Source of the DNA: an uncultured Bdellovibrio sp.
GTDB taxonomy: Bacteria; Bdellovibrionota; Bdellovibrionia; Bdellovibrionales; Bdellovibrionaceae
Direction: 5' to 3'
Length of the DNA stretch: 26,848 nucleotides
Assembly: GCA_963932905.1 (NCBI GenBank)
Contig: CAWVRN010000038.1
Span: 1 to 26,848 of the forward strand
The notes beneath the pieces were generated by a model. The model ran no database searches. It worked only from the letters and a program-made list of their open reading frames with translations, and had not been told where the DNA came from. Numbering within the stretch: the first letter of the stretch is position 1; each line of letters begins with the position of its first letter. This document shows, one piece after another, positions 3,033-25,413 of this stretch. Made by a program: the position numbers and the translations under genes.

Positions 3033-3707
3033 ATGCATACAAAAAACGCACTCATTATCGAAGTAGAAAATGGCGCCACTTTCCCAGAGTATTTTTTGGA
3101 TATGTTTAAATTCCAAGAAGTAAATAGGATGTTCCTTCGGGATGTCACATCGGGATTTAGAACCGACAAGTACGATTTTGTGCTGTATTCGTGTGACTGT
3201 GTGAATGAACGCCAGCTTAGATGGATATTGCCATTTGCGAACAAAAACCCGCGGTCGCAGTTTATTATTTTAACAGAGCAGATTTCTATCCACGCCTATA
3301 AACAAGTAACCGAAATGGGAAACATCATCACGTTGCAAATTCCATTAGGTGACCAAGTTATTCAGGCTATGATTAAACATTTGGTACAAGATAGTTCAAT
3401 GATTGCAACACAGCGGTTTCCAAGATTCATTACCGATGAACCCGTTAGAATGGTGGTGATGGAAACGGGACTACTCATACCAAGTCGTATGAAAAACTAC
3501 TCGGCCAGCGGTGCTTTTATCGAATATAAAGGCATGCATTTACGAGTCGGTCATACGCTAAAAGTAAATTTACCCAACCAAGAACATCCTCCGACGAAAA
3601 AATCGTTGCAACTGGATGGTAAGGTCGTTTGGGTTCGCAGTAGTGAAGCCCATTCGGGTGCTAGCTGTGGTATTGGGGTTCAATTCACTAGCCTAGAAGC
3701 TGCTTAG
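3033..3707 (+). CDS. PilZ domain protein with a degenerate receiver-like N-terminus
   Basis: C-terminal QRFPRF..NYSASGAFI..GKVVWVR..GIGVQF is the PilZ signature. Confidence 0.8.
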   Translation: MHTKNALIIEVENGATFPEYFLDMFKFQEVNRMFLRDVTSGFRTDKYDFVLYSCDCVNERQLRWILPFANKNPRSQFIILTEQISIHAYKQVTEMGNIITLQIPLGDQVIQAMIKHLVQDSSMIATQRFPRFITDEPVRMVVMETGLLIPSRMKNYSASGAFIEYKGMHLRVGHTLKVNLPNQEHPPTKKSLQLDGKVVWVRSSEAHSGASCGIGVQFTSLEAA

Positions 3708-5667: not shown

Positions 5668-6522
5668 ATGACTGGCTCATCGGATGGGGTTGAACATTTT
5701 AATAACACAGATCCCGTATTGTTGAGCGAAGCAGTTCATGATGTTCTAGGGATAAATTATGAAGAGTTCAAGGCGCTGATTAAAATTGGCGCTATCTATG
5801 TAAATAATCATCGACAATCTAAAGACAAATGGATTTTAGAAACAAACAGCGTGTTTAGAGTTCATACTAAACCGCGACGATTTTCATGCGATTACGATTG
5901 GAAATCACGAGTTGTTTTCCAAAATGAATCATTTTTGGTTTTAAACAAACCATCAGGCCTTCCCAGTCACCCTGCTGTAGATAATGCGTTGGAAAATGCG
6001 CTAACGCAAACAAGTCTGGTGTTGCAGGTTCCGCTTTATGTGACCCATCGTCTGGACACACTGACTTCGGGATTGATTGTTTACGGTAAGAAAAAGCAGT
6101 TTGTGAAAGATTTCAATATTCAAATGCTGGAACGTAAGGTTCAGAAGAAATATGTGGCGATCATTGAGGGGAGTCAAAATTTTCCAAAACACCTGACTCA
6201 TTATATGGACACGTCACCAGGAACGCCAAAGAGGTTATCTGCAGAGCCACGTGAAGATTGGGAAATTTGTAAATTAGAAATTCTTGATCAAAATGAAGTG
6301 TCGCCAGGTAAAAGGTGGGTGAAAATCAATTTATTGACAGGTCGAACCCACCAAATTCGTTCTCAAATGTCCTTCTTAGGCGCACCTATATTGGGTGATA
6401 AGTTGTATGGGGCGAAAACAGAATATCAGAAAAATGCCATAGCATTGCGATCATATCAGATTGAGTTTGTATTTGAAGGCAAACCGGTAAAGTTTGCCTT
6501 AGAGGAAACATTTATTCTGTAA
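5668..6522 (+). CDS. RluA family RNA pseudouridine synthase
   Basis: LNKPSGL, catalytic HRLD, TGRTHQIR, PILGDKLYG. Confidence 0.93.
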   Translation: MTGSSDGVEHFNNTDPVLLSEAVHDVLGINYEEFKALIKIGAIYVNNHRQSKDKWILETNSVFRVHTKPRRFSCDYDWKSRVVFQNESFLVLNKPSGLPSHPAVDNALENALTQTSLVLQVPLYVTHRLDTLTSGLIVYGKKKQFVKDFNIQMLERKVQKKYVAIIEGSQNFPKHLTHYMDTSPGTPKRLSAEPREDWEICKLEILDQNEVSPGKRWVKINLLTGRTHQIRSQMSFLGAPILGDKLYGAKTEYQKNAIALRSYQIEFVFEGKPVKFALEETFIL

Positions 6523-6532
6523 TCTTATTTTT

Positions 6533-6576
6533 AAAATAAAAAAAAGGAAAAGGCCCGAAGTATAGACTTCGGGCCC
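6533..6576 (-). terminator. Intrinsic terminator (minus strand; hairpin could also serve the RluA-family gene)
   Basis: 10-bp stem ggcccgaagt(6552-6561)/acttcgggcc(6566-6575), with an A-rich tract on its left that reads as a U-tract on the minus strand. Confidence 0.85.
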
Positions 6577-6768
6577 TCACTATCGTTGGATGTCAGGCGC
6601 GACACTGACTAGGTACCGGAGCAGTGTGAACTGTACAGCCGGCAGGATTGCACCAGTGTTAGCCTGCTCGGCACTCCCTCGGTTCCGGTGATGTGATAAG
6701 TCACATCACTGCTTTCCGACTGGTCACAACGTAAACGACCCGTGTATTTAGTACGGGTCGCTGGGTAA
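6545..6768 (-). ncRNA. Candidate structured non-coding RNA, family unknown
   Basis: Visibly GC-richer intergenic block with at least 5 stems, bounded by a sigma54 motif at 6780-6794 and the terminator at 6533-6576; no credible ORF or RBS; strand inferred from promoter and terminator. Confidence 0.6.
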
Positions 6769-6779
6769 TTTAATGAATT

Positions 6780-6794
6780 GCAATTCAAGCGCCT
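6780..6794 (-). promoter_or_regulatory. sigma54 -24/-12 promoter for the candidate ncRNA
   Basis: Minus strand AGGCGC-TTGAA-TTGC(A), exact GG-N10-GC spacing. Confidence 0.6.
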
Positions 6795-6879
6795 AGATAC
6801 ACTTCGACGTATTACGATTTTAGATAAGAAAAGTTCCAATTTTCCCTATTAGCACGAGGCAAATAGCTTTTGCTTGGTC

Positions 6880-6894
6880 TGGCATAGATATTGA
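6880..6894 (+). promoter_or_regulatory. sigma54-like promoter (TTGA variant at -12)
   Basis: TGGCAT-AGATA-TTGA upstream of the 6908 ORF. Confidence 0.45.
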
Positions 6895-6907
6895 AATCTT
6901 TTTTTGT

Positions 6908-7213
6908 ATGCCTAAATATTTTAGAAAAAAAATGGCCGTTGCTCCTTACACAATGTCAGAACATTTTAATAGTTATTCACTTTTTTTAATTCTTTCGCAA
7001 TCTAGTCAGAAACGAACTTTAGTAAGCACAGATCGATTTAAACGGGAACTAACTATCAAAGTGGCTAAAAAAAGCAATCGTTCTGAAAAATTAGACTACT
7101 GGATTTTTGAAGTTCCTGAAGATGGATTAATGAGTGAAATACAGTCGCAGTTTCGCCAAAGTGGAATCGAAATCACTATTCCTAAAAAAATTAAATCAAT
7201 TGCAGCGTCCTAA
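6908..7213 (+). CDS. Hypothetical basic protein (start could be 6932 or 6953)
   Basis: Open frame filling the gap between a sigma54-like promoter and a terminator hairpin; no recognised domain. Confidence 0.55.
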   Translation: MPKYFRKKMAVAPYTMSEHFNSYSLFLILSQSSQKRTLVSTDRFKRELTIKVAKKSNRSEKLDYWIFEVPEDGLMSEIQSQFRQSGIEITIPKKIKSIAAS

Positions 7214-7475: not shown

Positions 7476-7865
7476 CTAATGAAGAGGATTTACTTGCAGT
7501 TTGTTTTCTACGGTTGAAACCCCGGGAGCACTCCAGGCCGCCCATTTTGCATTGTCCATGTCAGCAAACGATTTAACATCACCGCGTAGGGTAACTTTGT
7601 CTCCGGAGACTTCTACTTTTATATGGTTAGCTTCATTTTTGGCTTCGCGCTTTAGGGCGTCTTCAATTTTTTCAACCACCGCTTTGACACCGCCCACGCG
7701 CTGAGTGGCTTTTTCAGATGCCAGTTTCTCAATGAAACTAGGAACTCTACCAGACAAGGTTACGATTCCGTTCAGTATCGAAACACCAATGTGTCCATGA
7801 GAGATATTTGGATCCCAATTTAGTTGTTCCAAAACATCGGCTTGGATTTGTGAATCTGATTTCAT
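7476..7865 (-). CDS. BON domain protein (two BON domains; appears internally shortened)
   Basis: SDSQIQADVLEQLNWDP..GIVTLSGRV..RVGGVKAV and IKVEVSGDKVTLRGDV..AAWSAPGVSTVENKL; SD AAGGAG. Confidence 0.9.
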   Translation of the reverse strand: MKSDSQIQADVLEQLNWDPNISHGHIGVSILNGIVTLSGRVPSFIEKLASEKATQRVGGVKAVVEKIEDALKREAKNEANHIKVEVSGDKVTLRGDVKSFADMDNAKWAAWSAPGVSTVENKLQVNPLH

Positions 7866-7969: not shown

Positions 7970-9589
7970 TCACGACATAATGTCCAATTTTTTGTCATTT
8001 TGTCTTTCGCTATTTTGTATCGCAAGCGCAAATTGATTTAGAATTTTTAAAAGGTTTTCTCGCGTCACTGGTTTGGTTAAATAAGCAGAGAACTCTTTAT
8101 CTGGAGTTTGATTTAAATCGGACGAAATTGCATTAGCCGTCAGCGCAATTATGGGTTTGGTAAAGCCCATACGTCGCAGGCGTCGAGTGGCCTCGTTGCC
8201 ATCTAATTTTGGCATTTGTATGTCCATAAGAATGATGTCATAAATTTCATTTGTTGCTTTCTGAACGCCGTCTTCGCCATCCCATGCGGTTTCTAGCTCG
8301 AAACCTGAATCTTTTAGGAAGTAGTTTATAATTTTTTGATTATCAAAAGAATCTTCAACTAAAAGAACCTTCAAGTTTCTATTTAGTTTATTACACCCGG
8401 GTTTCTGAGTTACTGGAGTTGGATTTTCGGGACTTGGGTAGTCCGTTAGTGCATAGGGCAGAGAGATTCTAAATGTGCTTCCTTTATCAACTTGGCTTTT
8501 TAATAGCACGACATCACCTTTAAGTTTTTGAGCCAGCTTTTTAGATAGATCCAATCCTAAACCAGTCCCCCCGTGCTTTCTAGATAGACTGACATCACCT
8601 TGTTCGAAGGGGTGAAATAGTTTTTCCTGATTTGAAAGAGTTATTCCAGGACCCGTGTCTTCAACGTCAATGATGAAAAAAGGAACATCATTAACGTTTT
8701 TTTTCAAACATAAGATTTTTATTGAACCTCGTTCCGTAAACTTAATGGCATTACCTAAAATATTGTTTACGATTTGTCGGACTCTAAGTGGATCAGATTT
8801 AAGAAACTGCGGAATTCCTGTGTCATACTCTAATGAAACTGAAACTGGCTTCGAAAGATACTTAGAACGTAGATCTTGGACTATCTCAGATAGCAATTTT
8901 CGCCAGTCGAAAAAGTCTTCCACAATTTGAATATGATCTGCTTCAATTTTAGATAAGTCTAAAATATCGTTAATCAGTTGAAGTGCACTTTCCCCATTTC
9001 TCTTAATAAATTTCAAAAAATCTTTTATTTCGGTTGGTTCATTGGATTCAAGTGCTAAATCAGTAAAGCCTAATATAGCGCTGAGTGGAGTGCGTATTTC
9101 ATGGCTCATATTAGCCAGAAACGCACTTTTAGCGCGACTAGAAGATTCCATTGCACGTTTTTCAGATTTTAGTTTTTGATTCTCTTCAATTTTCTCCTGA
9201 TCTATAGCACGCTTAATGCAATAACGAATAGAGCGTTCTAAAAGTTGAGGGGTAATTTGATCCTTGGATAAAAAATCAGAAGCGCCTTTGTTCATGGCGA
9301 TCACGTCGACATCGCGGTTTCCCTGACCTGTTAGCAAAATGATGCATTTTTTAACGTCATATTTTTTTATTTCATCTAAAATATCTAAGCCCGTTCTATA
9401 ATCAATGCGATAATCCACAAGATATACATCAGCCGACTGATTTTTTAAGGATTCAATTCCCGAGGTTGAATCACTGACCCAGCTTAAATTGTATTTTGTT
9501 CCTTTAACTTCATTCAAGAGCGATTGAATTAAAAAATAGTCATCTTGATCATCGTCAACTAAAACGACATTTATAGTATTATCGTTCAT
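7970..9589 (-). CDS. Hybrid histidine kinase (REC-HisKA-HATPase-REC)
   Basis: N-terminal REC (VVLVDDD..LVDY), H-box FLANMSHEIRTPL, NAIKFT, DTGPG, GTGLGL, C-terminal REC (LMDIQMP). Confidence 0.95.
   Translation of the reverse strand: MNDNTINVVLVDDDQDDYFLIQSLLNEVKGTKYNLSWVSDSTSGIESLKNQSADVYLVDYRIDYRTGLDILDEIKKYDVKKCIILLTGQGNRDVDVIAMNKGASDFLSKDQITPQLLERSIRYCIKRAIDQEKIEENQKLKSEKRAMESSSRAKSAFLANMSHEIRTPLSAILGFTDLALESNEPTEIKDFLKFIKRNGESALQLINDILDLSKIEADHIQIVEDFFDWRKLLSEIVQDLRSKYLSKPVSVSLEYDTGIPQFLKSDPLRVRQIVNNILGNAIKFTERGSIKILCLKKNVNDVPFFIIDVEDTGPGITLSNQEKLFHPFEQGDVSLSRKHGGTGLGLDLSKKLAQKLKGDVVLLKSQVDKGSTFRISLPYALTDYPSPENPTPVTQKPGCNKLNRNLKVLLVEDSFDNQKIINYFLKDSGFELETAWDGEDGVQKATNEIYDIILMDIQMPKLDGNEATRRLRRMGFTKPIIALTANAISSDLNQTPDKEFSAYLTKPVTRENLLKILNQFALAIQNSERQNDKKLDIMS
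7974..8004. promoter_or_regulatory. Paired activator sites (GACA-N3-TGTC type)
   Basis: GACATAATGTC 7974-7984 and GTCATTTTGTC 7994-8004, 20 bp apart, inside the 3' end of the hybrid kinase CDS. Confidence 0.65.
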
Positions 9590-9622
9590 TCATACCTTAC
9601 CTGTATTTTACAAATCGAAAGT

Positions 9623-9637
9623 GCAGACGAAAGGCCA
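9623..9637 (-). promoter_or_regulatory. sigma54 promoter for the hybrid kinase
   Basis: Minus TGGCCT-TTCGT-CTGC, correct spacing. Confidence 0.65.
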
Positions 9638-9677
9638 CAGCCAAATCAAAAAAAATACTAGCAGACGAGCAAGCCGA

Positions 9678-9726
9678 GACGCTTTGGCTATAGGAAATGA
9701 CAAAGTGGCAAATGGGTCATCTTGTC
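9678..9726. promoter_or_regulatory. Activator site cluster (GACA-N3-TGTC type)
   Basis: GACGCTTTGGC 9678-9688, GACAAAGTGGC 9699-9709 (21 bp apart), GTCATCTTGTC 9716-9726. Confidence 0.55.
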
Positions 9727-9762
9727 ATAAATTTTATTTAATATCATTTTTTATCGAAATAC

Positions 9763-10878
9763 TTAATTTAACAATGGCAGACGGATCACAAATTCTGATC
9801 CCTCGCCTAATTTACTAGTGGCAGAAATGTGTCCACCCCATGATTCCACAATTTTAAATGAAGTCGCCAAACCAAGGCCTGTGCCTTGGCCTATTTCTTT
9901 GGTAGTGAAAAATGGTTTGAATAAATTTCTTTGATTTTCATCAGAGATTCCACAACCTGTGTCCTTTACAGATAGTACGACTTCATCATTTTTTAATTCT
10001 GTTCTGATGATCACGTCGTGAGGCCGTGTCATTCCCTGTTTACGAGATTCATCAATAGCGTGAATAGCGTTGATGAGTATGTTTAGCAGTACTTGCCCGA
10101 GTGGGCCGGCTTCTGCCTTTACCATATTTGCGGCCGACAATTTTTTAATCAAATTGATATTGTTTCGCTCTAGTTCATGTTCGATCAAATTTAGAACGTC
10201 TTGAATAACTTGATTTATATCGACTGAGGCACCGGTCTCTGATTTCTGTTCACGCGCTAAATGCAGTAGGGAATTTACTAGTTTAGTAATACGATCAATT
10301 TGTGTTACAATTGTAGCTAGATCCTTTTTTAAAGCTTCATTACTTCCGGCTTTAGATTCAGCCAATTCAGCTCGACTTCGAATAATTCCCATCGGAGTAC
10401 CAATTTCGTGTGCTAGGCTAGATGCAAGAAGTCCCAGGGATGCCAATCTATCTTGTTGAATAATTTGCGCCTTACTTTCGCGCAATTCTTCCATGTCGTG
10501 CCGTTGCTTGATGGCATAGCGAATGGATCTTTCCAAAAGAGGACTTGTCAGTTGTCCTTTGACCAAATAATCGGATGCCCCGACGTGCATGGCTTTAATA
10601 TCTAGTTCAAAATCAATAAGGCCTGTCAGAAAAATGATGGGGCAGGAAAACATTTTGCCACGTGATTCACTTAATAATTCCAGACCGGTTTTCTCGCCCA
10701 GTCTATAATCTAATAGGCACGCATCGAACGTCTGTTCGTTCAGTGCAATTCGACCATCATTGTAATTTGATTTCCAGGTGACTTTGTATTTTGATGACAT
10801 CACATCATTTAATAAATCGCGGATATGCAAAAAATCGTCTTCGTCATCATCGATCAATAAGATGTGGAACTCTGTCAT
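9763..10878 (-). CDS. REC-histidine kinase (NtrB/AtoS-like transmitter)
   Basis: REC (ILLIDDD..LLDYRL), H-box LASLGLLASSLAHEIGTP, NAIHA, DTGCG, PFFTTK, GTGLGL. Confidence 0.95.
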   Translation of the reverse strand: MTEFHILLIDDDEDDFLHIRDLLNDVMSSKYKVTWKSNYNDGRIALNEQTFDACLLDYRLGEKTGLELLSESRGKMFSCPIIFLTGLIDFELDIKAMHVGASDYLVKGQLTSPLLERSIRYAIKQRHDMEELRESKAQIIQQDRLASLGLLASSLAHEIGTPMGIIRSRAELAESKAGSNEALKKDLATIVTQIDRITKLVNSLLHLAREQKSETGASVDINQVIQDVLNLIEHELERNNINLIKKLSAANMVKAEAGPLGQVLLNILINAIHAIDESRKQGMTRPHDVIIRTELKNDEVVLSVKDTGCGISDENQRNLFKPFFTTKEIGQGTGLGLATSFKIVESWGGHISATSKLGEGSEFVIRLPLLN

Positions 10879-11339
10879 TTTGTAACCTTTTTGGCACAGT
10901 TGGGAAGGGCTACTATTTCAAACCAGTACCGGCCAACATCACGCATGACTTGCACTAGCGATTCAAATTCAATGGGTTTGGTGATAAAAGAATTGGCGCC
11001 CAGGTTGTAGGATCGTACGATGTCTTCTTCAGCCTGTGACGTGGTCAATACAATCACTGGAATTTGATATAGATGAGGATGTTTTTTCAATTCAGTTAGT
11101 ACTTCGCGACCATCCATTTTTGGCATATTCAAATCTAGCAAGATCAAACCGGGCATTAGATTTTGACCGTCTTGTGACTGAGCCCATTTATCATGAAGAG
11201 TTTTTATTAGCGCTTCTCCATCATGAACAAACTGAAGTTCGTTCAACAATCGACTTTCCGTTAATGCTTCACGAATCATTTCGCAATCATCTAAATCGTC
11301 ATCGGCCACTAGGATTGGTATTGTATTATGGTCTCTCAT
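10875..11339 (-). CDS. Single-domain response regulator (Rcp1-like)
   Basis: ILVADDD, LILLDLNMPKMDGREVL, IPVIVLTTS, GANSFITKP; 4-nt overlaps with both neighbours. Confidence 0.95.
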   Translation of the reverse strand: MRDHNTIPILVADDDLDDCEMIREALTESRLLNELQFVHDGEALIKTLHDKWAQSQDGQNLMPGLILLDLNMPKMDGREVLTELKKHPHLYQIPVIVLTTSQAEEDIVRSYNLGANSFITKPIEFESLVQVMRDVGRYWFEIVALPNCAKKVTK

Positions 11340-12484
11340 ACCGGGATCTCCGTCGTTTGGGTTAGTGGAAGCAAAATAGAAAACGTGGCTCCTTGGTCAG
11401 GTTCTGATTTTGCCGTTATTATTCCACCATGACGGTCAACAATTTTACGGCAAACCGCTAGACCGATACCGGTTCCTTCGTATTCATGCCGTCCGTGAAG
11501 GCGTTGAAAAATTGTAAATATACGATCGACATATTTTTGATCAAATCCAATTCCGTTATCGGTTACGGTAATCAGGCACGCTTTCCCTGGTTTATTCAGC
11601 GTAGATGATTCTAAAATAGAGGCCGAGACCGTGACTTCGGGTTTGACATTTGGTTTATGAAATTTCAAAGCGTTGCTTATCAAATTTTGGAATAACTGAT
11701 GCATTTGAGTTGGATCGGCTTCGATGTTAGGTAAATCAGCTATTTGTACAGAACCGGAGGTTTGTTCTATGCGAACTTCTAGATCAGATTTAACTTGGTT
11801 TAAAATTTTATTTAAAGAAACGACTGAAAAAGGATTAGCTTTTGTCGTTACCCGTGAATAAGTGAGTAGGTCATTAATTAAAATCTGCATACGCTTAGCC
11901 GATGCCTGAACTCGTTCTAAATAGTCGAACGCTTCACTGGAAATAGTGTCCTTAGACTTAACCTTAACACGATCGGAAAATGTTTGTATTTTTCTAAGAG
12001 GCTCTTGTAGATCATGTGCCGCTATAGACGCGAAATCTTGTAATTCCTGATTGCTGATCTCAAGTTTTTTCGAATAGATTTTTAGGCGTTCTTCCGCCAA
12101 TTTACGTTCTGTGATTTCGTAACGGACGGATACATACTGTTCGGGTTTGCCTTCGTTATCCATAAATGGCACGATGGTCGTATTAACCCAATAGTAGGTG
12201 CCGTCTTTAGCTCGGTTCTTGATTTCGCCTTCCCAAGTTTTACCTTGGGAAATAGTTTTCCACATATCAATAAAAAATTCTTTAGGGTGATGATGGGAAT
12301 TGATAATTCTGTGCGTGTTTCCTAAAAGTTCTTCTTCTGAATATTTGGAAATAGCGCAGAACTTTTTATTAACGTACGAAATTTTTCCGCTTTTGTCGGT
12401 GATGGCAACGATGGCTGCTTCGTCAATTGCAGATTTTAAATGTAGGAAGTCTTCGCTGGATAGACCCTCAGTTGTTTTTTTCAT
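11336..12484 (-). CDS. Cytoplasmic PAS-domain sensor histidine kinase
   Basis: Likely start ATG 12484 (MKKTTEG); PAS with YVN..F, HHPKEFFIDMWKTISQGKTWEGEIKNRAKDGTYYWV; H-box AAHDLQEPLRKI; no TM segment. Confidence 0.93.
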   Translation of the reverse strand: MKKTTEGLSSEDFLHLKSAIDEAAIVAITDKSGKISYVNKKFCAISKYSEEELLGNTHRIINSHHHPKEFFIDMWKTISQGKTWEGEIKNRAKDGTYYWVNTTIVPFMDNEGKPEQYVSVRYEITERKLAEERLKIYSKKLEISNQELQDFASIAAHDLQEPLRKIQTFSDRVKVKSKDTISSEAFDYLERVQASAKRMQILINDLLTYSRVTTKANPFSVVSLNKILNQVKSDLEVRIEQTSGSVQIADLPNIEADPTQMHQLFQNLISNALKFHKPNVKPEVTVSASILESSTLNKPGKACLITVTDNGIGFDQKYVDRIFTIFQRLHGRHEYEGTGIGLAVCRKIVDRHGGIITAKSEPDQGATFSILLPLTQTTEIPV

Positions 12485-13871
12485 GTAATTCTTCCGGTGG
12501 TTCAGGGGTATCATCAGACACCATTCCATAAATACGTTCTTTTCTGTATAAAGTTCTGCGACTGATACCCAGAATTCGCGCCGCTTCGTCTTTTTTATTT
12601 TTGGCTTCACCCATGATCAGTTTGATATAACGTTCTTCCAGTTTTTCCAGAGTCGGCCGGTCAGAATGAAGTTGATCAATATTTTGCTGAGCTTCCTCTA
12701 GAGCACTACCAAGAATGACATTTTTTTCTATTAGTTTCCCAGTACTTAAAACAATTGCGCGTTCGATTACGTTTTCAAGCTCGCGAACATTTCCCGGCCA
12801 TGGGTGGGCCATCAAGACACTCATGGCTTCAGGTGTAGCGCCTTCAACGGTAGATCCATTTCTAATCGCAAATTTTTTGATAAAAGAGTCGACCAACATA
12901 GGAATATCTTCCAGCCGTTCACGCAGCGGTGGAACACGTATAGGTACGACATTTAATCGGTAAAATAAGTCTTCGCGGAACTTGCCGTCTTTCGCCATGA
13001 TTTTTAAATCCCGATGAGTCGCAGCGATAATGCGAACGTCAATGTCTTTATGAGTATTACTGCCAACGGCCCGTATTTGACGATCCTGTAGAACGCGCAG
13101 TAGTTTAGCTTGCAGTTGCAGACTCATGTCACCAATTTCATCTAGAAACAAAGTGCCGTGATTAGCTTCTTCAAACAGCCCTTTTTTATCGGATACGGCA
13201 CCTGTGAACGAGCCTTTCACATGACCAAATAATTCACTTTCTAATAAATGTTCCGGAATGGCCGTGCAGTTAATTGCAATAAACGGTTTATTTTTTCTGG
13301 GGCTGGCGTTGTGTAAAGCACGAGCCACCAATTCTTTTCCAGATCCACTTTCACCGGAAATCAAAACGCTTGCGGACGCAGGTGCCACAACTTTAACGAG
13401 TTCAAAAACAGAATTGATGGCAGGACTTTTTCCAACAATAGAATCAAGAGTAAAACTTTTAGTGAGTTCCTTTTTTAAACTCGCGTTTTCTTGTTTAAGA
13501 GAAACCCGCTCGCTGGCCCGTTTGACCAGAAGTTTCATTTCTTCGTTTTTGAATGGTTTTACAATATAATGATAGGCGCCCAGTTTCATGGCCTCGATTG
13601 CAGTTTCGATGGACCCAAACGCGGTCATCATAATTGAAACAATAGATGGATAATCGGTTTGAACCTTTTTAAGAAACATCAGGCCATCGATTTCTTTCAT
13701 TTTGTGATCGGTAATTAAAATGTGGGGAAGGTCGGTTTTGAATTTAAATAAGGCTTCCGCTGCCGACGTATACTGTGTGGTAATGTATCCTTCAGCTGAA
13801 AGAAGTTCCGCTACGACTCCGCCCATTTCTTTGTCGTCGTCAACAATTGCTACTTTTATCTTGTTTGCCAT
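12468..13871 (-). CDS. sigma54-dependent enhancer-binding response regulator (NtrC/AtoC family, REC-AAA+-Fis HTH)
   Basis: REC, Walker A GESGSGKE, ESELFGH..GSFTGA, LFLDEIG, WPGNVRELEN, HTH AARILGISRRTLYRK. Confidence 0.97.
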   Translation of the reverse strand: MANKIKVAIVDDDKEMGGVVAELLSAEGYITTQYTSAAEALFKFKTDLPHILITDHKMKEIDGLMFLKKVQTDYPSIVSIMMTAFGSIETAIEAMKLGAYHYIVKPFKNEEMKLLVKRASERVSLKQENASLKKELTKSFTLDSIVGKSPAINSVFELVKVVAPASASVLISGESGSGKELVARALHNASPRKNKPFIAINCTAIPEHLLESELFGHVKGSFTGAVSDKKGLFEEANHGTLFLDEIGDMSLQLQAKLLRVLQDRQIRAVGSNTHKDIDVRIIAATHRDLKIMAKDGKFREDLFYRLNVVPIRVPPLRERLEDIPMLVDSFIKKFAIRNGSTVEGATPEAMSVLMAHPWPGNVRELENVIERAIVLSTGKLIEKNVILGSALEEAQQNIDQLHSDRPTLEKLEERYIKLIMGEAKNKKDEAARILGISRRTLYRKERIYGMVSDDTPEPPEELHEKNN

Positions 13872-14179: not shown

Positions 14180-14587
14180 TTGAAACCCTCACCGCACATT
14201 CAAAAGTATATGACTTTTCTGCCTAAAACTATCAACCACGATCAAACCATCGGTCATGCCATAAGTTTAATGAAAAAACTCCATATTCGGCATCTTCCCG
14301 TAATGAAAAATAATAAACTCATGGGCATCTTAACAGATCGAGATATCAGTTTAGTATTGCGGTTCATAGCGTCTAACCCAGACAAAATTCGCGTGGAAGA
14401 TGCCTGTTCGCCGCATCCCTATACTACCAGCCCAGGTACTCCGTTAGCAGACGTCGTGAGTTATATGGCTGAACATACCATTGGATCGGCCATCATCGTT
14501 GATAATGGAACCCTCGTGGGAATTTTCACCGAAGTCGATGCATTTCGTGCCATCGCTGACTTACTGGAAACCAGACTTAAAGCATAA
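14180..14587 (+). CDS. CBS-pair (Bateman) protein
   Basis: IRHLPV..GILTDRDI and GSAIIVDNGTLVGIFTEVD; TTG start after GGAG. Confidence 0.92.
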   Translation: MKPSPHIQKYMTFLPKTINHDQTIGHAISLMKKLHIRHLPVMKNNKLMGILTDRDISLVLRFIASNPDKIRVEDACSPHPYTTSPGTPLADVVSYMAEHTIGSAIIVDNGTLVGIFTEVDAFRAIADLLETRLKA

Positions 14588-14604
14588 ACAAAATGGGAGG
14601 TAGC

Positions 14605-15030
14605 ATGAAACTTGTAGATCGAATTAGTCACGTGTTGATGGATAGTTTAATTGTAACGTCTATTGCCTTTATCGCTGTTTCTTCAATGGCCTTTTCAGGG
14701 AAGCAATCAGAGTCTATACCATTTCAAGAGTTTCAAGATGATATGCGCAAGGAAGGTCAGTTCCTAACGGTACATTTGTCGTTGGGAAATCCAATCCGAG
14801 TCTTTATTGTTGGTAAGGAAGAAGCAAAAATCGACGTATCTAAATTAGATATCACCATAAGACGCTTAAACCCCTATCCTGGGAAACTTCTAAAGTTAGA
14901 TAGGTACGATAATTACGTTGTAGTAAATGATCTTGGTGAAATGCAGAAGGACGCGGAACTTGAAATCAAATTAAAATCTAACGACAAGACTGAAAATTTT
15001 AAATTTAAGTTAAAACAAAAAGTCCCTTAA
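14605..15030 (+). CDS. Hypothetical exported or membrane-anchored protein
   Basis: ATG 14605 after GGAGG; N-terminal hydrophobic stretch, beta-rich remainder; lies within the operon. Confidence 0.7.
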   Translation: MKLVDRISHVLMDSLIVTSIAFIAVSSMAFSGKQSESIPFQEFQDDMRKEGQFLTVHLSLGNPIRVFIVGKEEAKIDVSKLDITIRRLNPYPGKLLKLDRYDNYVVVNDLGEMQKDAELEIKLKSNDKTENFKFKLKQKVP

Positions 15031-15040
15031 GGAGTACGCT

Positions 15041-16417
15041 TTGGATGGAAAGAAAAAATTAACGATACAATTCTTAGGAGCGGCCAGTACTGTTACAGGA
15101 TCAAAATATTTAATAAGTAATGGCACCAACAATTTATTAATCGACTGTGGATTATTTCAAGGATTAAAATCGTTACGCTTAAAAAATTGGGATGAATTTC
15201 CGATTGACCCATCTAAGATTGATGCCATCTTGCTTACCCATGCGCATTTAGATCACTCCGGCTATATTCCAAGATTAATAAAAAGGGGATTTCGAGGAAA
15301 AATTTTCTCGACGGCGGCAACCAAAGATTTATGTCAAATCTTACTAACCGATGCCGGCTATCTAGCCGAGGAAGAAGCCGAATATCTAAATAAACACAAA
15401 CGCTCCAAGCACAAACCGGCACTCCCCTTATTTACTTTTGAAGATGCGCAGAAGTCGATTGAATATTTTCAAGCCGTAAATTTTAATTTCGAATTCAATC
15501 TAAATGACGAAATTAGCTTTCAATTTAGGTATGCCGGACACATTCTGGGAGCCGCATCGATTATTTTAAGGGTCGGCGATATTAAAATCGGGTTTACGGG
15601 GGACATTGGTCGACCGCAAGATCCGATTTTTTATTCTCCCAGAGAATTGCCCGCAGTGGACTATCTTATCACTGAGTCCACCTATGGAAATAGGAAACAC
15701 GTTGATAGCGACCCAATAAGCGAGCTTGAGAAGTGCATTGTAGAAACCGTAGCACGCGGAGGCAGTGTCATTATACCTTCCTTTGCGGTCGGGCGGGCAC
15801 AAAGTCTGATGTATTATTTATGGAAGTTAAAACTTGAAAATAAAATTCCCAACATTCCGATGTATCTAAATAGCCCGATGGCTACTAATGCGAATGCGGT
15901 GTGGACGCAGTATCACGAGTTACATAGACTGAATGGTCAAGAATGTAAAGATGTGTGCGGAATAGTAAAGTACATTCAGGGCGTAGAGGAATCTAAGGCA
16001 TTAAACGAGCAAACGACACCGATGGTGATTATTTCTGCAAGTGGTATGCTGACGGGTGGACGTATACTACATCATATAAAGCAATTTGGTCCAGACGAGA
16101 AAAATACAATTCTGTTGACCGGGTTTCAAGCGGCGGGCACTCGAGGCGAGGCTCTGCTTAACGGTGCTAAGCAAATTAAAATTCATGGTGAGTATGTGGA
16201 TATTAAAGCAAAAGTTAAAATGCTAGATAATATTTCTGCCCATGCCGACTATTCAGAAATCGTTGAATGGTTTAAGCGTAGTCAAATATCGCCCAAGCGG
16301 GTATTTGTCACCCATGGTGAACCTACGGCTGCGGATGAAATGCGAAAACGATTGAATGAATCCTTAAACTGGAATTGTATCGTTCCGCTTCTGAATGAAT
16401 CCTTCACATTAGAATAA
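15041..16417 (+). CDS. MBL-fold beta-CASP ribonuclease (CPSF73/Ysh1-like family)
   Basis: FLGAA..VTGS, THAHLDHSG, AGHILG, FTGDIG, ESTYG, SAHAD, THGE; TTG start after AAGGAG. Confidence 0.93.
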   Translation: MDGKKKLTIQFLGAASTVTGSKYLISNGTNNLLIDCGLFQGLKSLRLKNWDEFPIDPSKIDAILLTHAHLDHSGYIPRLIKRGFRGKIFSTAATKDLCQILLTDAGYLAEEEAEYLNKHKRSKHKPALPLFTFEDAQKSIEYFQAVNFNFEFNLNDEISFQFRYAGHILGAASIILRVGDIKIGFTGDIGRPQDPIFYSPRELPAVDYLITESTYGNRKHVDSDPISELEKCIVETVARGGSVIIPSFAVGRAQSLMYYLWKLKLENKIPNIPMYLNSPMATNANAVWTQYHELHRLNGQECKDVCGIVKYIQGVEESKALNEQTTPMVIISASGMLTGGRILHHIKQFGPDEKNTILLTGFQAAGTRGEALLNGAKQIKIHGEYVDIKAKVKMLDNISAHADYSEIVEWFKRSQISPKRVFVTHGEPTAADEMRKRLNESLNWNCIVPLLNESFTLE

Positions 16418-16447
16418 AAATGATTTTTATTAGTGTCTCGTTATTGT

Positions 16448-16912
16448 TTATGCCATGCGGGTGTAATCATGTGATGTGTGTCGTTCTTTTGTACCTACTT
16501 GGGTACGACAGAGGTTGCCAAGACGATTAATTTCATTTCCAAGGAGTGCGACAAGGTCGTCCATCGATACAACTCCTTTTATTTTTTCGTCCTGGTCCAA
16601 GACCAAAAGTCGTCGAACTCGATTTTCTTCCATTTTTTTAATCGAGTCTTCTATTAAAGTAGTCTCTGTTACAGTGATAAGAGAAGTATTCATTATTTTT
16701 TCGACTTTTTCTATTCGTGTGTCGATGTCGTTCTTAATGCATTTGATAACGATATCCCTATCTGTAACTATACCTACTGGTTTACCTTCAGAATATCGCT
16801 TAGTAATCACAACCATGCCTACACTTTTTTCGTCCATGATTCGTGCGACATCTTGAATTGTCGTATCCTCGAAAACAGTGACGACGTCGCTGCCTAAAAA
16901 TTTTTTAATCAT
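16448..16912 (-). CDS. CBS-pair protein
   Basis: GIVTDRDIV, VRRLLV, GVVSMDDL; likely start ATG 16912 after AAGGAAAG. Confidence 0.92.
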   Translation of the reverse strand: MIKKFLGSDVVTVFEDTTIQDVARIMDEKSVGMVVITKRYSEGKPVGIVTDRDIVIKCIKNDIDTRIEKVEKIMNTSLITVTETTLIEDSIKKMEENRVRRLLVLDQDEKIKGVVSMDDLVALLGNEINRLGNLCRTQVGTKERHTSHDYTRMA

Positions 16913-16941
16913 ATACTTTCCTTTGTGCATAGATCAAATAA

Positions 16942-16956
16942 GCACTATTTGTGCCA
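16942..16956 (-). promoter_or_regulatory. sigma54 promoter
   Basis: Minus TGGCAC-AAATA-GTGC. Confidence 0.75.
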
Positions 16957-16996
16957 TTGTCATAGTGGTTGGTGTGGATTGCTATGAGACACGATG

Positions 16997-17028
16997 GACA
17001 AAGCGACAAGGTGGCGTGACAAAATGTC
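16997..17028. promoter_or_regulatory. Paired activator sites shared by divergent sigma54 promoters
   Basis: GACAAAGCGAC 16997-17007 and GACAAAATGTC 17018-17028, 21 bp apart; 41 bp from each flanking promoter. Confidence 0.7.
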
Positions 17029-17068
17029 TCGTAGTTTTGGTTCATTGCGTTTTAATGAGACTTCGTAG

Positions 17069-17083
17069 TGGTCCGGCGGTTGC
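17069..17083 (+). promoter_or_regulatory. sigma54 promoter
   Basis: TGGTCC-GGCGG-TTGC. Confidence 0.7.
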
Positions 17084-17108
17084 TGTTAGGAGAAACATAC
17101 AAAAGGAT

Positions 17109-17630
17109 ATGAAAATGAAAATGAATGTTGGAATTCACTCGTCCCACAACGTGGTGTATGTAAATCGATTAGATACGTTGCAAAAGGCCTATCACCTGAT
17201 GACCAAAATTTCGACTCGTCATCTGCCGGTAGTGGACGAGAGTGGAATGGTGATTGGGATGTTGTCCGATCGCGATATTATTCGCGCGATGAAAAAACCA
17301 ATCGGCAGCGATTGGTATGCGGTACCATCCAATCCTGAATTTAATCCAGATGAAATTGTACAAAATTATATGAGTTGGCCGATCGGAACGATTGATGAAG
17401 AAGCATCCCTGACTCAAGCTGCGCAGATAATGCTAGATAGAAAAATTTCTGCTTTGGCTGTGACACAAAAGGATCAAGTCATTGGAATTGTAACCACTGA
17501 AGACCTTTTAAAGGCATTCATCAATGACCATAAGACTTCTCTTAGCGATGTAAAAGATAGAATCGTTGGTGCCGTCTACCGATCACCAGTTGGAAGTATC
17601 ATTCAAAGTTTATCAAATGCAGGGATATAA
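17109..17630 (+). CDS. CBS-pair protein with C-terminal extension
   Basis: TRHLPVVD..GMLSDRDI, KISALAV..GIVTTEDLL; start ATG 17109 after AAGGA. Confidence 0.9.
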   Translation: MKMKMNVGIHSSHNVVYVNRLDTLQKAYHLMTKISTRHLPVVDESGMVIGMLSDRDIIRAMKKPIGSDWYAVPSNPEFNPDEIVQNYMSWPIGTIDEEASLTQAAQIMLDRKISALAVTQKDQVIGIVTTEDLLKAFINDHKTSLSDVKDRIVGAVYRSPVGSIIQSLSNAGI

Positions 17631-17650
17631 AAATTATGAAAGGAAAAAGT

Positions 17651-18049
17651 ATGTCAGATTATATTGTATGGTTGGATTCGGAAAAAGCTCATGTTTTTGA
17701 ACTTAATGCTGAATTGAAACAATCTAAATTACAGAAAGAAAATTTCGAACACCAAATTAAACATAAAAAAGGAAATCATGAACAGCACCTTAATGAAATT
17801 CTTTTTAAAAAGATCGCAGAACGCCTAACTGAAAGTAATAAAATATTACTGATGGGGCCCGGCCTAGCAAAAAATCAGTTTCGTGTTTACTTAGATGAAC
17901 ATCACACTCATTCTTTGGGTAAGCATGTGGTGGGTGTTGAAACATGCGATCATCCAACTGATAATCAAATATTGGCGATCGCGCGTAAGTTTTTTGCTCA
18001 TTATGATTTATTCAATGAACCAATTTTAGCAACTGGATCTAGGGATTAA
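17651..18049 (+). CDS. aeRF1/pelota middle-domain-like protein ('translational machinery protein' / baeRF-like)
   Basis: IVWLDSEKAHVF, ILLMGPGLAKNQF, VVGVETCDHPTDNQILAIARKFF; His-rich loop. Confidence 0.75.
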   Translation: MSDYIVWLDSEKAHVFELNAELKQSKLQKENFEHQIKHKKGNHEQHLNEILFKKIAERLTESNKILLMGPGLAKNQFRVYLDEHHTHSLGKHVVGVETCDHPTDNQILAIARKFFAHYDLFNEPILATGSRD

Positions 18050-18053
18050 AGCG

Positions 18054-18452
18054 ATGAAAAAAGCAGCTCCAAAAGTTCAGAAGTATATGACTCAGTCACC
18101 AAAAAGCATTGGCTATGATCGCCCACTGTCTCAAGCGATGGGTGTCATGAATGAAATGAGAGTGCGCCACTTGCCTGTGTTAAAAGAAGGTAAACTGATT
18201 GGGATTTTAACCGACCGGGATGTTAAACTCGTAGCTAGTTTCGAAGAAATCGATCCAGACAAAATTTTGGTGGAAGAAGCATGCACCTATGATCCGTATT
18301 GTGTTGCACCAACGACTGACCTAAATGAGGTCGTTGATCACATGGCCAGAAAAAAATATGGTTGTGCCGTAGTAATGGATAGCGGTAAGCTGGTCGGTAT
18401 CTTAACAGAAACGGATGTTTACAAAGCATTTGTCGATGTTCTTAATCATTAG
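18054..18452 (+). CDS. CBS-pair protein, paralog of 14180-14587
   Basis: VQKYMT..PK, VRHLPV..GILTDRDV, PDKI.VEEAC, GKLVGILTETD. Confidence 0.92.
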   Translation: MKKAAPKVQKYMTQSPKSIGYDRPLSQAMGVMNEMRVRHLPVLKEGKLIGILTDRDVKLVASFEEIDPDKILVEEACTYDPYCVAPTTDLNEVVDHMARKKYGCAVVMDSGKLVGILTETDVYKAFVDVLNH

Positions 18453-21914: not shown

Positions 21915-21949
21915 TTTTCCTCCTAGTATTTTGATAAAAATTTTAAATT

Positions 21950-21964
21950 GCAATGTATAAGCCA
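21950..21964 (-). promoter_or_regulatory. sigma54 promoter
   Basis: Minus TGGCTT-ATACA-TTGC(A). Confidence 0.75.
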
Positions 21965-23905: not shown

Positions 23906-23959
23906 ACATACTCCTTTGTGTGAACGTGTTCGTTCTGGTTGGTTGTATGGAAAAAGAAA

Positions 23960-23974
23960 GCAATAGTAAGGCCA
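23960..23974 (-). promoter_or_regulatory. sigma54 promoter for the Hsp20-USP operon
   Basis: Minus TGGCCT-TACTA-TTGC(T). Confidence 0.75.
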
Positions 23975-24448: not shown

Positions 24449-24474
24449 TGATTTTTAGCCAGCAAATAAGATGC

Positions 24475-25413
24475 CTATTCTATTTTTTGAATTTTAACTT
24501 TTTGATACATTTTAGATATTTCATTTCTGCTTCCTAAGTTCATACCGGGTTCAAATAAGGTGGCTGCGGCGGCGGCAAGTCCTCGTTTTAATACTTGCGA
24601 TTCGTCCACATAGTTTTTATTTAGCTCGTAAACCATAGCTCCTACCAAGGAATCGCCGGCACCAACCGTCGATTTTATTTTTATGTTAGGAACCTTGCCA
24701 AAATAGATATTTTTTTGTCCAACTAAAAGTGTGCCTCCTTCCACAGAGGAAACGCAGATATATTGAACGTCATTTAAATATCTTTTAGCTTTTTCAATTA
24801 CAGAACCTATCGATTTAACGTGTGAACCAGTGAATTCTTGAAACTCTTCTAAATTAGGTTTGATAAGAAAAGGTTTTGCCTGAATCACGGCTCTTAATAT
24901 TTCCCCGGGACAATCTACAACTGCTTTTATATTTTTTCTATGAGAAATTTTTAAAAGGTATACAATGTCTTTAGATGTAAAACCATTTGGAAGAGAACCT
25001 CCCAGTAACAAAAATGATATATTTTTTTGAGCCTCGTACAAACGAAACAATTTACTTTTTTCAGAGGCAGAAACTTTAGGCCCAGGGAAACTTAGACGGG
25101 TCTGGTTGTGATTTAACTCGTTGCCGACTGTGACATTGATCCGTGAAGGGCGTTTGATTTGAATAAATTCAGTATTAAGATTTTCTTTTTTCATCAAAAA
25201 ATTAATCTCGTCGCCTGTGCTGCCGCCCAGAAATCCAGACAGGACCACGGTCGCCTTAAGACGACTTAAAATTCTTGCTGAATTAATTGAGTTTCCTCCT
25301 GGTGATCTAACAGCGTTGTATACATAAGATTTTTCATTCGGTTTCAGGTCTTTGACAAATCCACTAAGATCCAGTGCTGGGTTGGGAGTGATGGTAAATA
25401 TTTTTTTCTTCAT
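24475..25413 (-). CDS. pfkB: 1-phosphofructokinase/PfkB family hexose kinase
   Basis: TITPNPALD, PGGNSIN.AR, GGSLP, LIKPNLEE, STVGAGDS. Confidence 0.92.
   Translation of the reverse strand: MKKKIFTITPNPALDLSGFVKDLKPNEKSYVYNAVRSPGGNSINSARILSRLKATVVLSGFLGGSTGDEINFLMKKENLNTEFIQIKRPSRINVTVGNELNHNQTRLSFPGPKVSASEKSKLFRLYEAQKNISFLLLGGSLPNGFTSKDIVYLLKISHRKNIKAVVDCPGEILRAVIQAKPFLIKPNLEEFQEFTGSHVKSIGSVIEKAKRYLNDVQYICVSSVEGGTLLVGQKNIYFGKVPNIKIKSTVGAGDSLVGAMVYELNKNYVDESQVLKRGLAAAAATLFEPGMNLGSRNEISKMYQKVKIQKIE

Follow-up and report, generated by a model that had tools for sequence, protein, structure and literature searches.

A pseudoknotted noncoding RNA gene absent from Rfam 15, preceded by a sigma54-type promoter in an uncultured Bdellovibrio and found in related bacteria and phage contigs

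The stretch of DNA analysed here, hereafter the window, comprises 26,848 nucleotides of an uncultured Bdellovibrio sp. (contig CAWVRN010000038.1 of assembly GCA_963932905.1), and contains a GC-rich island from which a noncoding RNA of ~230 nt is predicted to be transcribed on the minus strand, at 6536-6768. The island is bordered on one side by the gene of an RluA-type pseudouridine synthase (5668-6522, plus strand, Pfam PseudoU_synth_2), which is convergent with the RNA and lies 3′ of it, and on the other by a small plus-strand open reading frame (ORF) at 6908-7213. The GC fraction around the RNA is 0.53-0.57 compared with ~0.37 in the surroundings, and that of the RNA itself is 55%. It is present as a single copy in its own genome and stands at the end of a run of minus-strand signalling genes. 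A coding function was rejected, as no frame is open across the homologues; the 76-aa minus-strand ORF at 6609-6839 has no Pfam match, and no frame is conserved across the members. The region folds far more stably than expected from its composition: the minus-strand fold of 6536-6768 has a free energy of -92.5 kcal/mol (z -5.80) and the plus-strand fold one of -94.0 kcal/mol (z -5.11), and on either strand none of 200 dinucleotide shuffles equals it. The results described below identify a conserved, pseudoknotted fold shared by a family of homologues, and we are highly confident in the existence of both the RNA gene and this fold.

When 41 related genomes were searched at the DNA level, one relative emerged, in a genome of the same genus (G008), with 78% identity over the core, and these two sequences alone already provide 13 compensatory pairs. 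Two covariance models, R1 and R2, match 6580-6766 of the window with 227 and 195 bits, respectively. Pair counts were based on an alignment of 21 sequences (A6) from genomes of Bdellovibrionales and from metagenome contigs, using the model structure with the three innermost pairs of helix P4 replaced by the pseudoknot. Standard pairs occupy 93.1% of the 972 cells in A6 compared with 66.3% when the columns are shuffled, a value that none of 500 shuffles reaches, and 41 of the 52 pairs are changed on both sides; the fitting of A6 to the model inflates these counts, and A6 includes closely related rows (L036/L045 and L035/L040). As a control, sliding the 3′ partners by 1-3 columns lowers the pairing to 34-44%. 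The covariation anticipated by an earlier, sequence-only annotation of this DNA (the original prediction) is thus strong among the homologues.

In the conserved fold, a closing helix P1 (6727-6731 with 6584-6588) bounds a junction that bears P2, P3, P4, an optional P5 and P6, with covarying helices and fixed loop and junction letters. All five pairs of P1 are changed on both sides. P2 pairs UCGG at 6716-6719 with CCGA at 6679-6682 (98.8% paired), so that the whole arm spans 6679-6719, and it is capped by a variable hairpin, P2a (6686-6711), in which 7 of 7 pairs are changed on both sides and which is missing in L048 and L039. The 5′ strand of P3, GGAG at 6674-6677, pairs with 6618-6621 and is 93.9% paired, with two-sided changes in all four of its pairs. 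The P4 hairpin (6638-6672) is formed by 6663-6672 and 6638-6646 and displays the loop CUAACACUGGUGCAAU, 16 nt at 6647-6662, which is near-invariant in the family. From this loop, GGUGC at 6650-6654 pairs with GUACC at 6612-6616, forming a pseudoknot between the P4 loop and the strand immediately 3′ of P3. This 5-bp pseudoknot, a new feature unseen in the original prediction, is 100% paired in 20 of the 21 sequences, namely all those with letters at these positions, and its U-A pair is replaced by C-G in L021 and L028; the window copy contains a G-U. The 3′ strands of P3 and of the pseudoknot together occupy 6612-6621, inside the conserved sequence CUCCGGYACC. P5 (6622-6633) is a variable hairpin with 4 of 4 pairs changed on both sides, absent in several members, and P6 (6592-6609) is a hairpin with the conserved loop GUMGCG whose outer five pairs covary. 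Upstream of P1, a 5′ hairpin (6736-6760) is an optional part of the family. Its loop CUAAAUAC (6744-6752) is identical in the window, L021 and L022 while the stem around it covaries, and the hairpin is missing in many members, for example in L023 and L041, where the promoter abuts P1. The loop CUAAAUAC also resembles the start of the P4 loop, CUAAMAC.

The five local stems proposed by the original prediction are all present, and each corresponds to an element of the RNA: 6552-6561/6566-6575 to the terminator, 6592-6596/6605-6609 to P6, 6638-6646/6663-6672 to P4, 6688-6696/6701-6709 to the P2a hairpin, and 6736-6743/6753-6760 to the 5′ hairpin. Among the four longer-range pairings proposed with them, that of 6584-6588 with 6727-6731 is the conserved P1, and the other three are not kept. 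In A6, 6615-6622/6682-6689 is 61.5% paired compared with 62.2% in shuffled columns, with 451 of 500 shuffles at least as high; 6606-6612/6720-6726 is 56.0% paired compared with 54.1% (108 of 500); and 6621-6626/6707-6712 is 38.8% paired compared with 41.1% (400 of 500). The claim of mutually exclusive folds depended on these competing helices, and since the three pairings score no better than shuffled columns and are not kept in the 21 homologues, two alternative architectures find no comparative support. The three pairings are possible in the window sequence, and are a property of that sequence and not of the family. A short pairing of UGGA with UCCG, competing with P3, is still possible in most members because both strands are conserved, and no covariation lies behind it.

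The original prediction had left the strand in doubt, as several G-U pairs seemed to fit the plus strand better. The minus strand is settled by three kinds of evidence taken together, namely an excess of G-U over A-C cells, minus-strand terminators and minus-strand promoters. The family alignment contains 50-69 G-U cells and 16 A-C cells, a comparison favoured by the alignment having been fitted on the minus strand. At the 3′ end, a stem of 13 pairs (6578-6549, of which 7 are G-C) with a loop of 4 is followed on the minus strand by the tail TCCTTTTTTT, and a scan for hairpins and U runs recognizes an intrinsic terminator at 6536-6578; on the plus strand no U run follows the terminator hairpin. 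The U-tailed end hairpin of the original prediction is thereby upheld. A terminator or a U run follows P1 in most homologues, in one of two forms: a separate hairpin with a U run (L020, L021, L023, L027 and L041), or a U run immediately after P1 (~11 of the 21 members).

At the 5′ end, the minus-strand motif AGGCGC-N5-TTGCA, with GG at -24 and GC at -12, is present at 6779-6794 as previously claimed and agrees with 9 of the 11 specified positions of TGGCAC-N5-TTGCW; promoter calls throughout are consensus matches. From the usual sigma54 spacing, transcription would start near 6768. Sigma54 (rpoN) is encoded in the genome, and a gene for an NtrC-type activator is present in the window at 12468-13871. 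The sigma54-type promoter is more than a one-off: 6 of the 21 loci have a correctly spaced GG/GC site in the equivalent position, 29-68 nt upstream of P1, and these six represent at least three genera in two families and a metagenome contig. These sites score 9/11 each in L020, L022, L027 and L041, 8 in L028 and 7 in L023. Relative to the frequency of such sites across all 79 kb of the loci, 4 were seen at ≥9/11 with 0.21 expected, 5 at ≥8 with 0.53 expected, and 6 at ≥7 with 1.29 expected. Sigma54 dependence does not extend to the family as a whole: the same-genus relative G008 has no GG-N10-GC site upstream of its RNA, and other members have sigma70-like promoters, with strict sigma70-type promoters being found in L042 (TTGACA-17-TACAGT) and L048 (TTGACA-17-TATATT). 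In L024, L025 and L026 the RNA directly follows a gene on the same strand.

Inspection by eye revealed no common activator site upstream of the six sigma54-type promoters. In the window, two inverted repeats located ~85-145 nt upstream of the predicted start, GGCATA-N20-TATGCC (6880-6912) and GCAAA-N5-TTTGC (6853-6867), are candidate activator sites, and no counterpart of either was seen at the other sigma54-type loci. As noted in the original prediction, no GACA-N3-TGTC site lies near the RNA promoter, the nearest being at 7974.

The RNA matches no catalogued family. A search of the whole window against Rfam 15 at gathering scores returned 0 matches. At E≤10, the region 6400-6950 gave 11 weak matches of ≤22 bits, of which 10 fall on the terminator or the flanks and one, in the core, is a C/D-box look-alike; the core 6580-6735 gave three noise matches below 14 bits. 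Nine homologous loci gave 0 matches at E≤1, and eight viral loci gave only two tRNAs, both elsewhere in L063 and none on the element. With no credible match in the window or in 17 homologous loci, the RNA is undescribed within Rfam 15, as had been supposed. Its reported dissimilarity to tRNA, tmRNA, signal recognition particle (SRP) RNA and 6S RNA also holds, as ARAGORN was negative in the window and the genome's own 6S (70.1 bits) and SRP (60.7 bits) RNAs lie elsewhere.

Several more specific identities were considered and rejected. The hairpin of the c-di-GMP-II riboswitch has a loop of ~16 nt that starts with CUAAA and whose middle pairs with a 3′ strand as a pseudoknot. The window RNA shares this likeness of loop and pseudoknot; its overall architecture differs and it is not a member, since the best genome match of the c-di-GMP-II model (RF01786) lies elsewhere and reaches 14.7 bits (E 8.8) against a cut-off of 53.5, and no match was found in the RNA region at E≤10. 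YrlA, a bacterial Y RNA, belongs to the sigma54/RtcR-controlled rsr-yrlBA-rtcBA operon, is a structured RNA whose 5′ and 3′ ends pair into a closing helix, and also occurs in phages. The window RNA resembles it in its sigma54-type promoter, its end-closing helix and its occurrence in phages, but lacks the tRNA-like module (ARAGORN), and a Y RNA is excluded because no gene for Ro60 (TROVE domain) or RtcB was found in the genome, which is 98.6% complete. A group I intron was likewise dismissed: there is no match to RF00028, the element is intergenic in the genome loci, and no viral member interrupts a gene. The ribonucleotide reductase of L066 matches its PHROG profile nearly end to end, and the element precedes the primase/helicase ORF in L068 and the terminase ORF in L064 instead of lying within either.

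No description of this RNA was found in the literature, and searches with sequence words from the P4 loop returned only an unrelated primer. The main texts of three surveys of structured RNA motifs (PMC5737381, PMC8632094, PMC11109978) contain no mention of Bdellovibrio, Bacteriovorax, Deltaproteobacteria or sigma-54, and the motif could be held in their supplements. As far as these main texts describe them, the orphan motifs of the surveys resemble the window RNA in forming GC-rich intergenic islands, in covariation and in having no assigned function. The family is therefore new to Rfam 15, while its kind, the orphan structured RNA of bacteria and phages, is known.

The distribution of the RNA is patchy. 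In the family search, model R1 matched in 6 of 151 genomes, and in the order search R2 matched in 7 of 151; in a phylum sample R2 matched in 2 of 151 genomes, both inside the order, and in none of the 127 from other orders. The 20-mer GGCUAAMACUGGYGCAWWCC of the P4 loop was searched through 384 genomes of the order and was found in 8 (G000, G008, G011, G136, G156, G187, G212 and G244), whereas the reversed control word was found in 0; with the models, G126 and G227 are recognized as well, and G213 is matched in part. These counts apply to the genomes searched. A 20-mer search did not find the RNA in 44 genomes of genus g9. A 22-nt version of the word detected 14 metagenome loci, 13 of which are matched by R2; among these 13, two have scores identical to those of the window and of G008, respectively, and a third is a 33-nt partial match. 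An 18-mer of the P6 hairpin occurs at 17 contig loci, by title all but the G008 contig from unrelated lineages, and the four of these that were scored matched the hairpin only (E ~0.03). The partial copy in G213 (L030, contig C44, 1501-1732 minus) retains a recognizable 3′ third, comprising the pseudoknot partner, P6 and the 3′ strand of P1 (24.7-25 bits), at the end of a 412-aa ORF, and may be a truncated relic.

The P4-loop word also occurs in eight viral contigs (IMG/VR). R2 aligns over its full length in six of them and over the hairpin alone in two, and the pseudoknot partner GGCAC(C/U) follows the hairpin downstream in 8 of 8. PHROG profiles identified the neighbouring genes as those of terminase large subunit, portal, DnaB-type helicase, primase, ribonucleotide reductase, HNH endonuclease, RecT, exonuclease and DNA polymerase. 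A second subtype was observed in L067 (2934-3069) and L069 (2955-3150), where the P4 loop, the pseudoknot partner and P6 are kept and CUGGAGACAYGCAUUCGAU replaces the P2/P3 region. In blastn searches of 50,697 cultured-phage records, the window core found nothing and a viral member gave only a 30-nt chance match. Such a distribution might be read as that of a relic of a phage or mobile element, transferred horizontally and with no role in the host. The very patchy spread, the different loci occupied in two species of one genus and the full P2-P6 architecture in the viral contigs L066 and L070 point in this direction, but compensatory changes have preserved the fold, together with the invariant letters, in different families of the order, the RNA comes with good terminators and with promoters of host type, among them sigma54, and no phage genes lie near the RNA at the genome loci; we regard a relic as highly improbable.

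The patchy spread, the absence of a gene association and the intergenic phage sites beside terminase, primase, ribonucleotide reductase and HNH genes also recall small self-cleaving ribozymes, as does an invariant core with a pseudoknot. A new class of ribozyme, self-cleaving or otherwise catalytic, is nevertheless very unlikely in our estimation, as the RNA matches no Rfam ribozyme family, no cleavage-site signature can be named in it, and a dedicated promoter and terminator are unusual for the class.

The genes around the RNA argue for a unit of its own. In the window no minus-strand gene lies 3′ of the RNA, where only the convergent pseudouridine synthase gene is found, in agreement with the original prediction. 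Same-genus orthologues of that gene have no such RNA adjoining them. Among the first 10 genome loci listed, ~8 have a convergent gene as their nearest downstream neighbour, so that the RNA is not a 5′ leader at most genome loci. The neighbours differ at every locus and include an esterase with NrsF, an SDR with an EamA protein, an SPFH protein, a Cys/Met PLP enzyme and YflT with a BON protein, among others. A BON-domain gene as a shared neighbour was rejected: one lies upstream on the same strand in both the window and G244, but the two align with 23 bits and 32% identity over 37 residues. The copy in the window is at 7476-7865 on the minus strand, within the signalling-gene run that ends at the RNA. 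With the downstream gene usually convergent and no neighbour conserved, the earlier view of a stand-alone unit rather than a 5′ leader holds, and a regulated downstream gene, as expected of a riboswitch, is lacking in the window and at most genome loci.

Some members are arranged differently. In L064 the element ends 7 nt before the gene of a terminase large subunit, and in L068 it lies just upstream of a primase/helicase gene. L042 and L047 are followed by ORFs of unknown family, with a ribosome-binding site and ATG within 8-19 nt; in L042 the ribosome-binding site is GGAG. These arrangements, together with the U run directly after P1 in about half of the members, raise the possibility of a conditional terminator acting in cis, riboswitch-like or controlled by a protein, in which the folded domain, P1 and the U run would end transcription, a ligand or factor would decide the outcome, and the window copy would be an orphan or sponge derivative. 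A precedent is the HMP-PP riboswitch, for which an aptamer embedded in a terminator has been described (PMC6478431). Several observations make this explanation quite unlikely: the next gene is convergent and there is nothing to control in the window and at most genome loci, the genes downstream of the cis-like members have no common function, the alternative pairings of the original prediction are unsupported, and several members have, by eye, a promoter-like site again after the element.

A base-pairing small RNA (sRNA), in which a conserved, accessible segment recognizes mRNA targets by pairing while the remainder of the molecule is a stabilizing scaffold, would also fit an RNA with its own promoter and terminator and no downstream gene, and short loops conserved while stems vary would be natural in such an RNA. 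Three segments could serve as seeds: GUMGCG in the P6 loop, CUAAAUAC in the loop of the 5′ hairpin, and the A-rich portion of the P4 loop. Most of the invariant letters, however, are in the pseudoknot and the junctions and not in an open seed, and the 5′ hairpin is absent in many members. Hfq was not found in the genome, which speaks against classical Hfq-dependent antisense action, and it is hard to picture an mRNA target shared by all the carriers of this core, which include phage contigs and distant families that differ in their gene sets. We therefore judge base pairing to be unlikely, if still worth bearing in mind.

Sequestration of CsrA was considered in turn, since CsrA is encoded in the genome and conserved GGA triplets occur in UCGGAAAG, UGGAACC and GAGGGAG. 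Three such triplets only are present, in P2, an internal loop and P3, and none lies in a hairpin loop of the conserved fold; moreover, only 8 of the 384 order genomes searched carry the RNA, which also occurs in phage contigs. A CsrA sponge thus seems scarcely plausible.

Our best guess is that the RNA acts in trans by binding either a protein or a small ligand, a view that is favoured because there is no downstream gene, no Hfq was found, the context is variable, and the phage and bacterial backgrounds are unrelated. RNA polymerase with sigma54 would start near 6768 once an enhancer-binding activator fires, which may be the NtrC-type protein whose gene lies 6 kb upstream within this stress-gene island, and transcription would stop at the terminator, near 6540. 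The RNA would then work in trans as a rigid three-dimensional scaffold: because the fixed loop and junction letters are held by covarying helices and the pseudoknot, they would present a defined surface at which the invariant loop, pseudoknot and junction could bind a protein or small ligand. So bound, the RNA may serve as a decoy, a sponge or a component of a ribonucleoprotein, and would be neither a 5′ leader nor a simple antisense RNA. Gene, fold and stand-alone status rest on the computed results presented above and the mechanism is what we infer from them; the binding scaffold itself is an evenly balanced call, and the full statement, that of an uncatalogued pseudoknotted RNA gene started here by sigma54 and acting in trans as a scaffold, is offered with moderate confidence. 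With respect to the original prediction of a sigma54-dependent sRNA or a stand-alone switch or sponge RNA, the stand-alone unit and the sigma54-type promoter are retained and the switching folds are not.

Several points weigh against a scaffold acting in trans under sigma54. No gene co-occurs with the RNA across the compared neighbourhoods and no partner was identified there. In L042, L047 and L064 the element lies 7-19 nt before a ribosome-binding site or start codon, which fits a cis-regulatory role at least at those loci. The invariant single-stranded letters could equally be a base-pairing seed or a catalytic core. The sigma54 site is absent in 15 of the 21 loci, including that of the closest relative, G008, and the promoter, start and end of the RNA are predictions from consensus and hairpin scans. 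In the window, four GGC-N7-TTGCW sites are found with 1.59 expected; 12 of 100 shuffles reach at least 4, and the count is not significant. Their placement favours sigma54 control: all four are minus-strand sites, each of which coincides with the 5′ end of an RNA or listed ORF of that strand or falls slightly within it. To the points against may be added the inflation of the pair counts in A6 and the relatedness of many of its rows, mentioned above.

The three further sites lie on the minus strand at 21949-21963, 23959-23973 and 24461-24475, at a 137-aa ORF of unknown family, an Hsp20 gene and the gene of an ion-channel protein, respectively, and together with the activator gene they look like parts of a sigma54-controlled stress island. 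The signalling run itself (7970-13871, minus strand) encodes the NtrC-type sigma54 activator (12468-13871) followed by a single receiver protein, a PAS histidine kinase and two hybrids of kinase and receiver. It forms part of a stress-type island that also encodes Usp, Hsp20, the ion channel and five CBS-domain proteins. The genes of the five CBS-domain proteins cluster at 14180-18452 around a gene (15041-16417) for an RNase-like protein with a beta-CASP/RMMBL metallo-beta-lactamase fold. Six GACA-N3-TGTC palindromes are present in the window (7974, 14030, 14061, 17018, 24038 and 25512) with 0.32 expected, and 0 of 100 shuffles reach 6. Two are situated where the activator gene and a CBS-domain gene diverge, another is ~70 nt upstream of the sigma54-type site of Hsp20, and they are probably sites for activator binding. 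On the other side of the RNA, 3 kb away, a gene at 3033-3707 encodes a PilZ-domain protein, a putative receptor of c-di-GMP, with no link to the RNA demonstrated.

Two described systems are instructive for comparison. One of the small RNAs GlmY and GlmZ acts as a protein decoy. Both are sRNAs of 150-200 nt transcribed from sigma54 promoters in Enterobacteriaceae (PMC3045617). They consist of three simple stem-loops without a pseudoknotted junction and are confined to enterobacteria, and they have no sequence or model match to the window RNA. Closer in phylogeny is merRNA of B. bacteriovorus, which is described as a 445-nt, attack-phase-specific, stand-alone transcript that holds a c-di-GMP-I riboswitch, has no conserved downstream ORF and is proposed to be a c-di-GMP sponge; the same study reports strong FliA motifs in the promoters of three small RNAs (PMC3627812). 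As described there, merRNA and the window RNA are alike in being structured, aptamer-like RNAs that form their own units in related predators without a conserved downstream ORF. They differ in that merRNA contains a riboswitch known to Rfam, whereas the window RNA matches no Rfam family and has a sigma54-type promoter.

The family is defined well enough for direct testing, with a covariance model, ~25 sequences, the helices and the pseudoknot in hand, and the first reading has been corrected in that the alternative folds belong to one sequence and not to the family. What is unusual is that the RNA is common to predatory bacteria and phage contigs and occurs in two settings, as a gene in its own right and immediately upstream of other genes. 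RNAs that combine a fixed core, covarying helices and a pseudoknot are very often riboswitches, ribozymes or parts of ribonucleoproteins, and new classes of them tend to open up biology. It is a tentative but possible extension of these results that a new class of compact pseudoknotted RNA is common to Bdellovibrionales predators and bacteriophages, with the P4 loop and pseudoknot as binding pocket or catalytic centre, and that it is wired here into a sigma54 stress response. If this were true, the RNA might be a new aptamer for a small signalling molecule, which bacteria would use as an independent sponge and phages as a switch embedded in a terminator. Alternatively, it might be a new ribozyme, or might capture some machine of the prey or host. 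The tie to sigma54 promoters in several lineages would place it under signal-dependent control.

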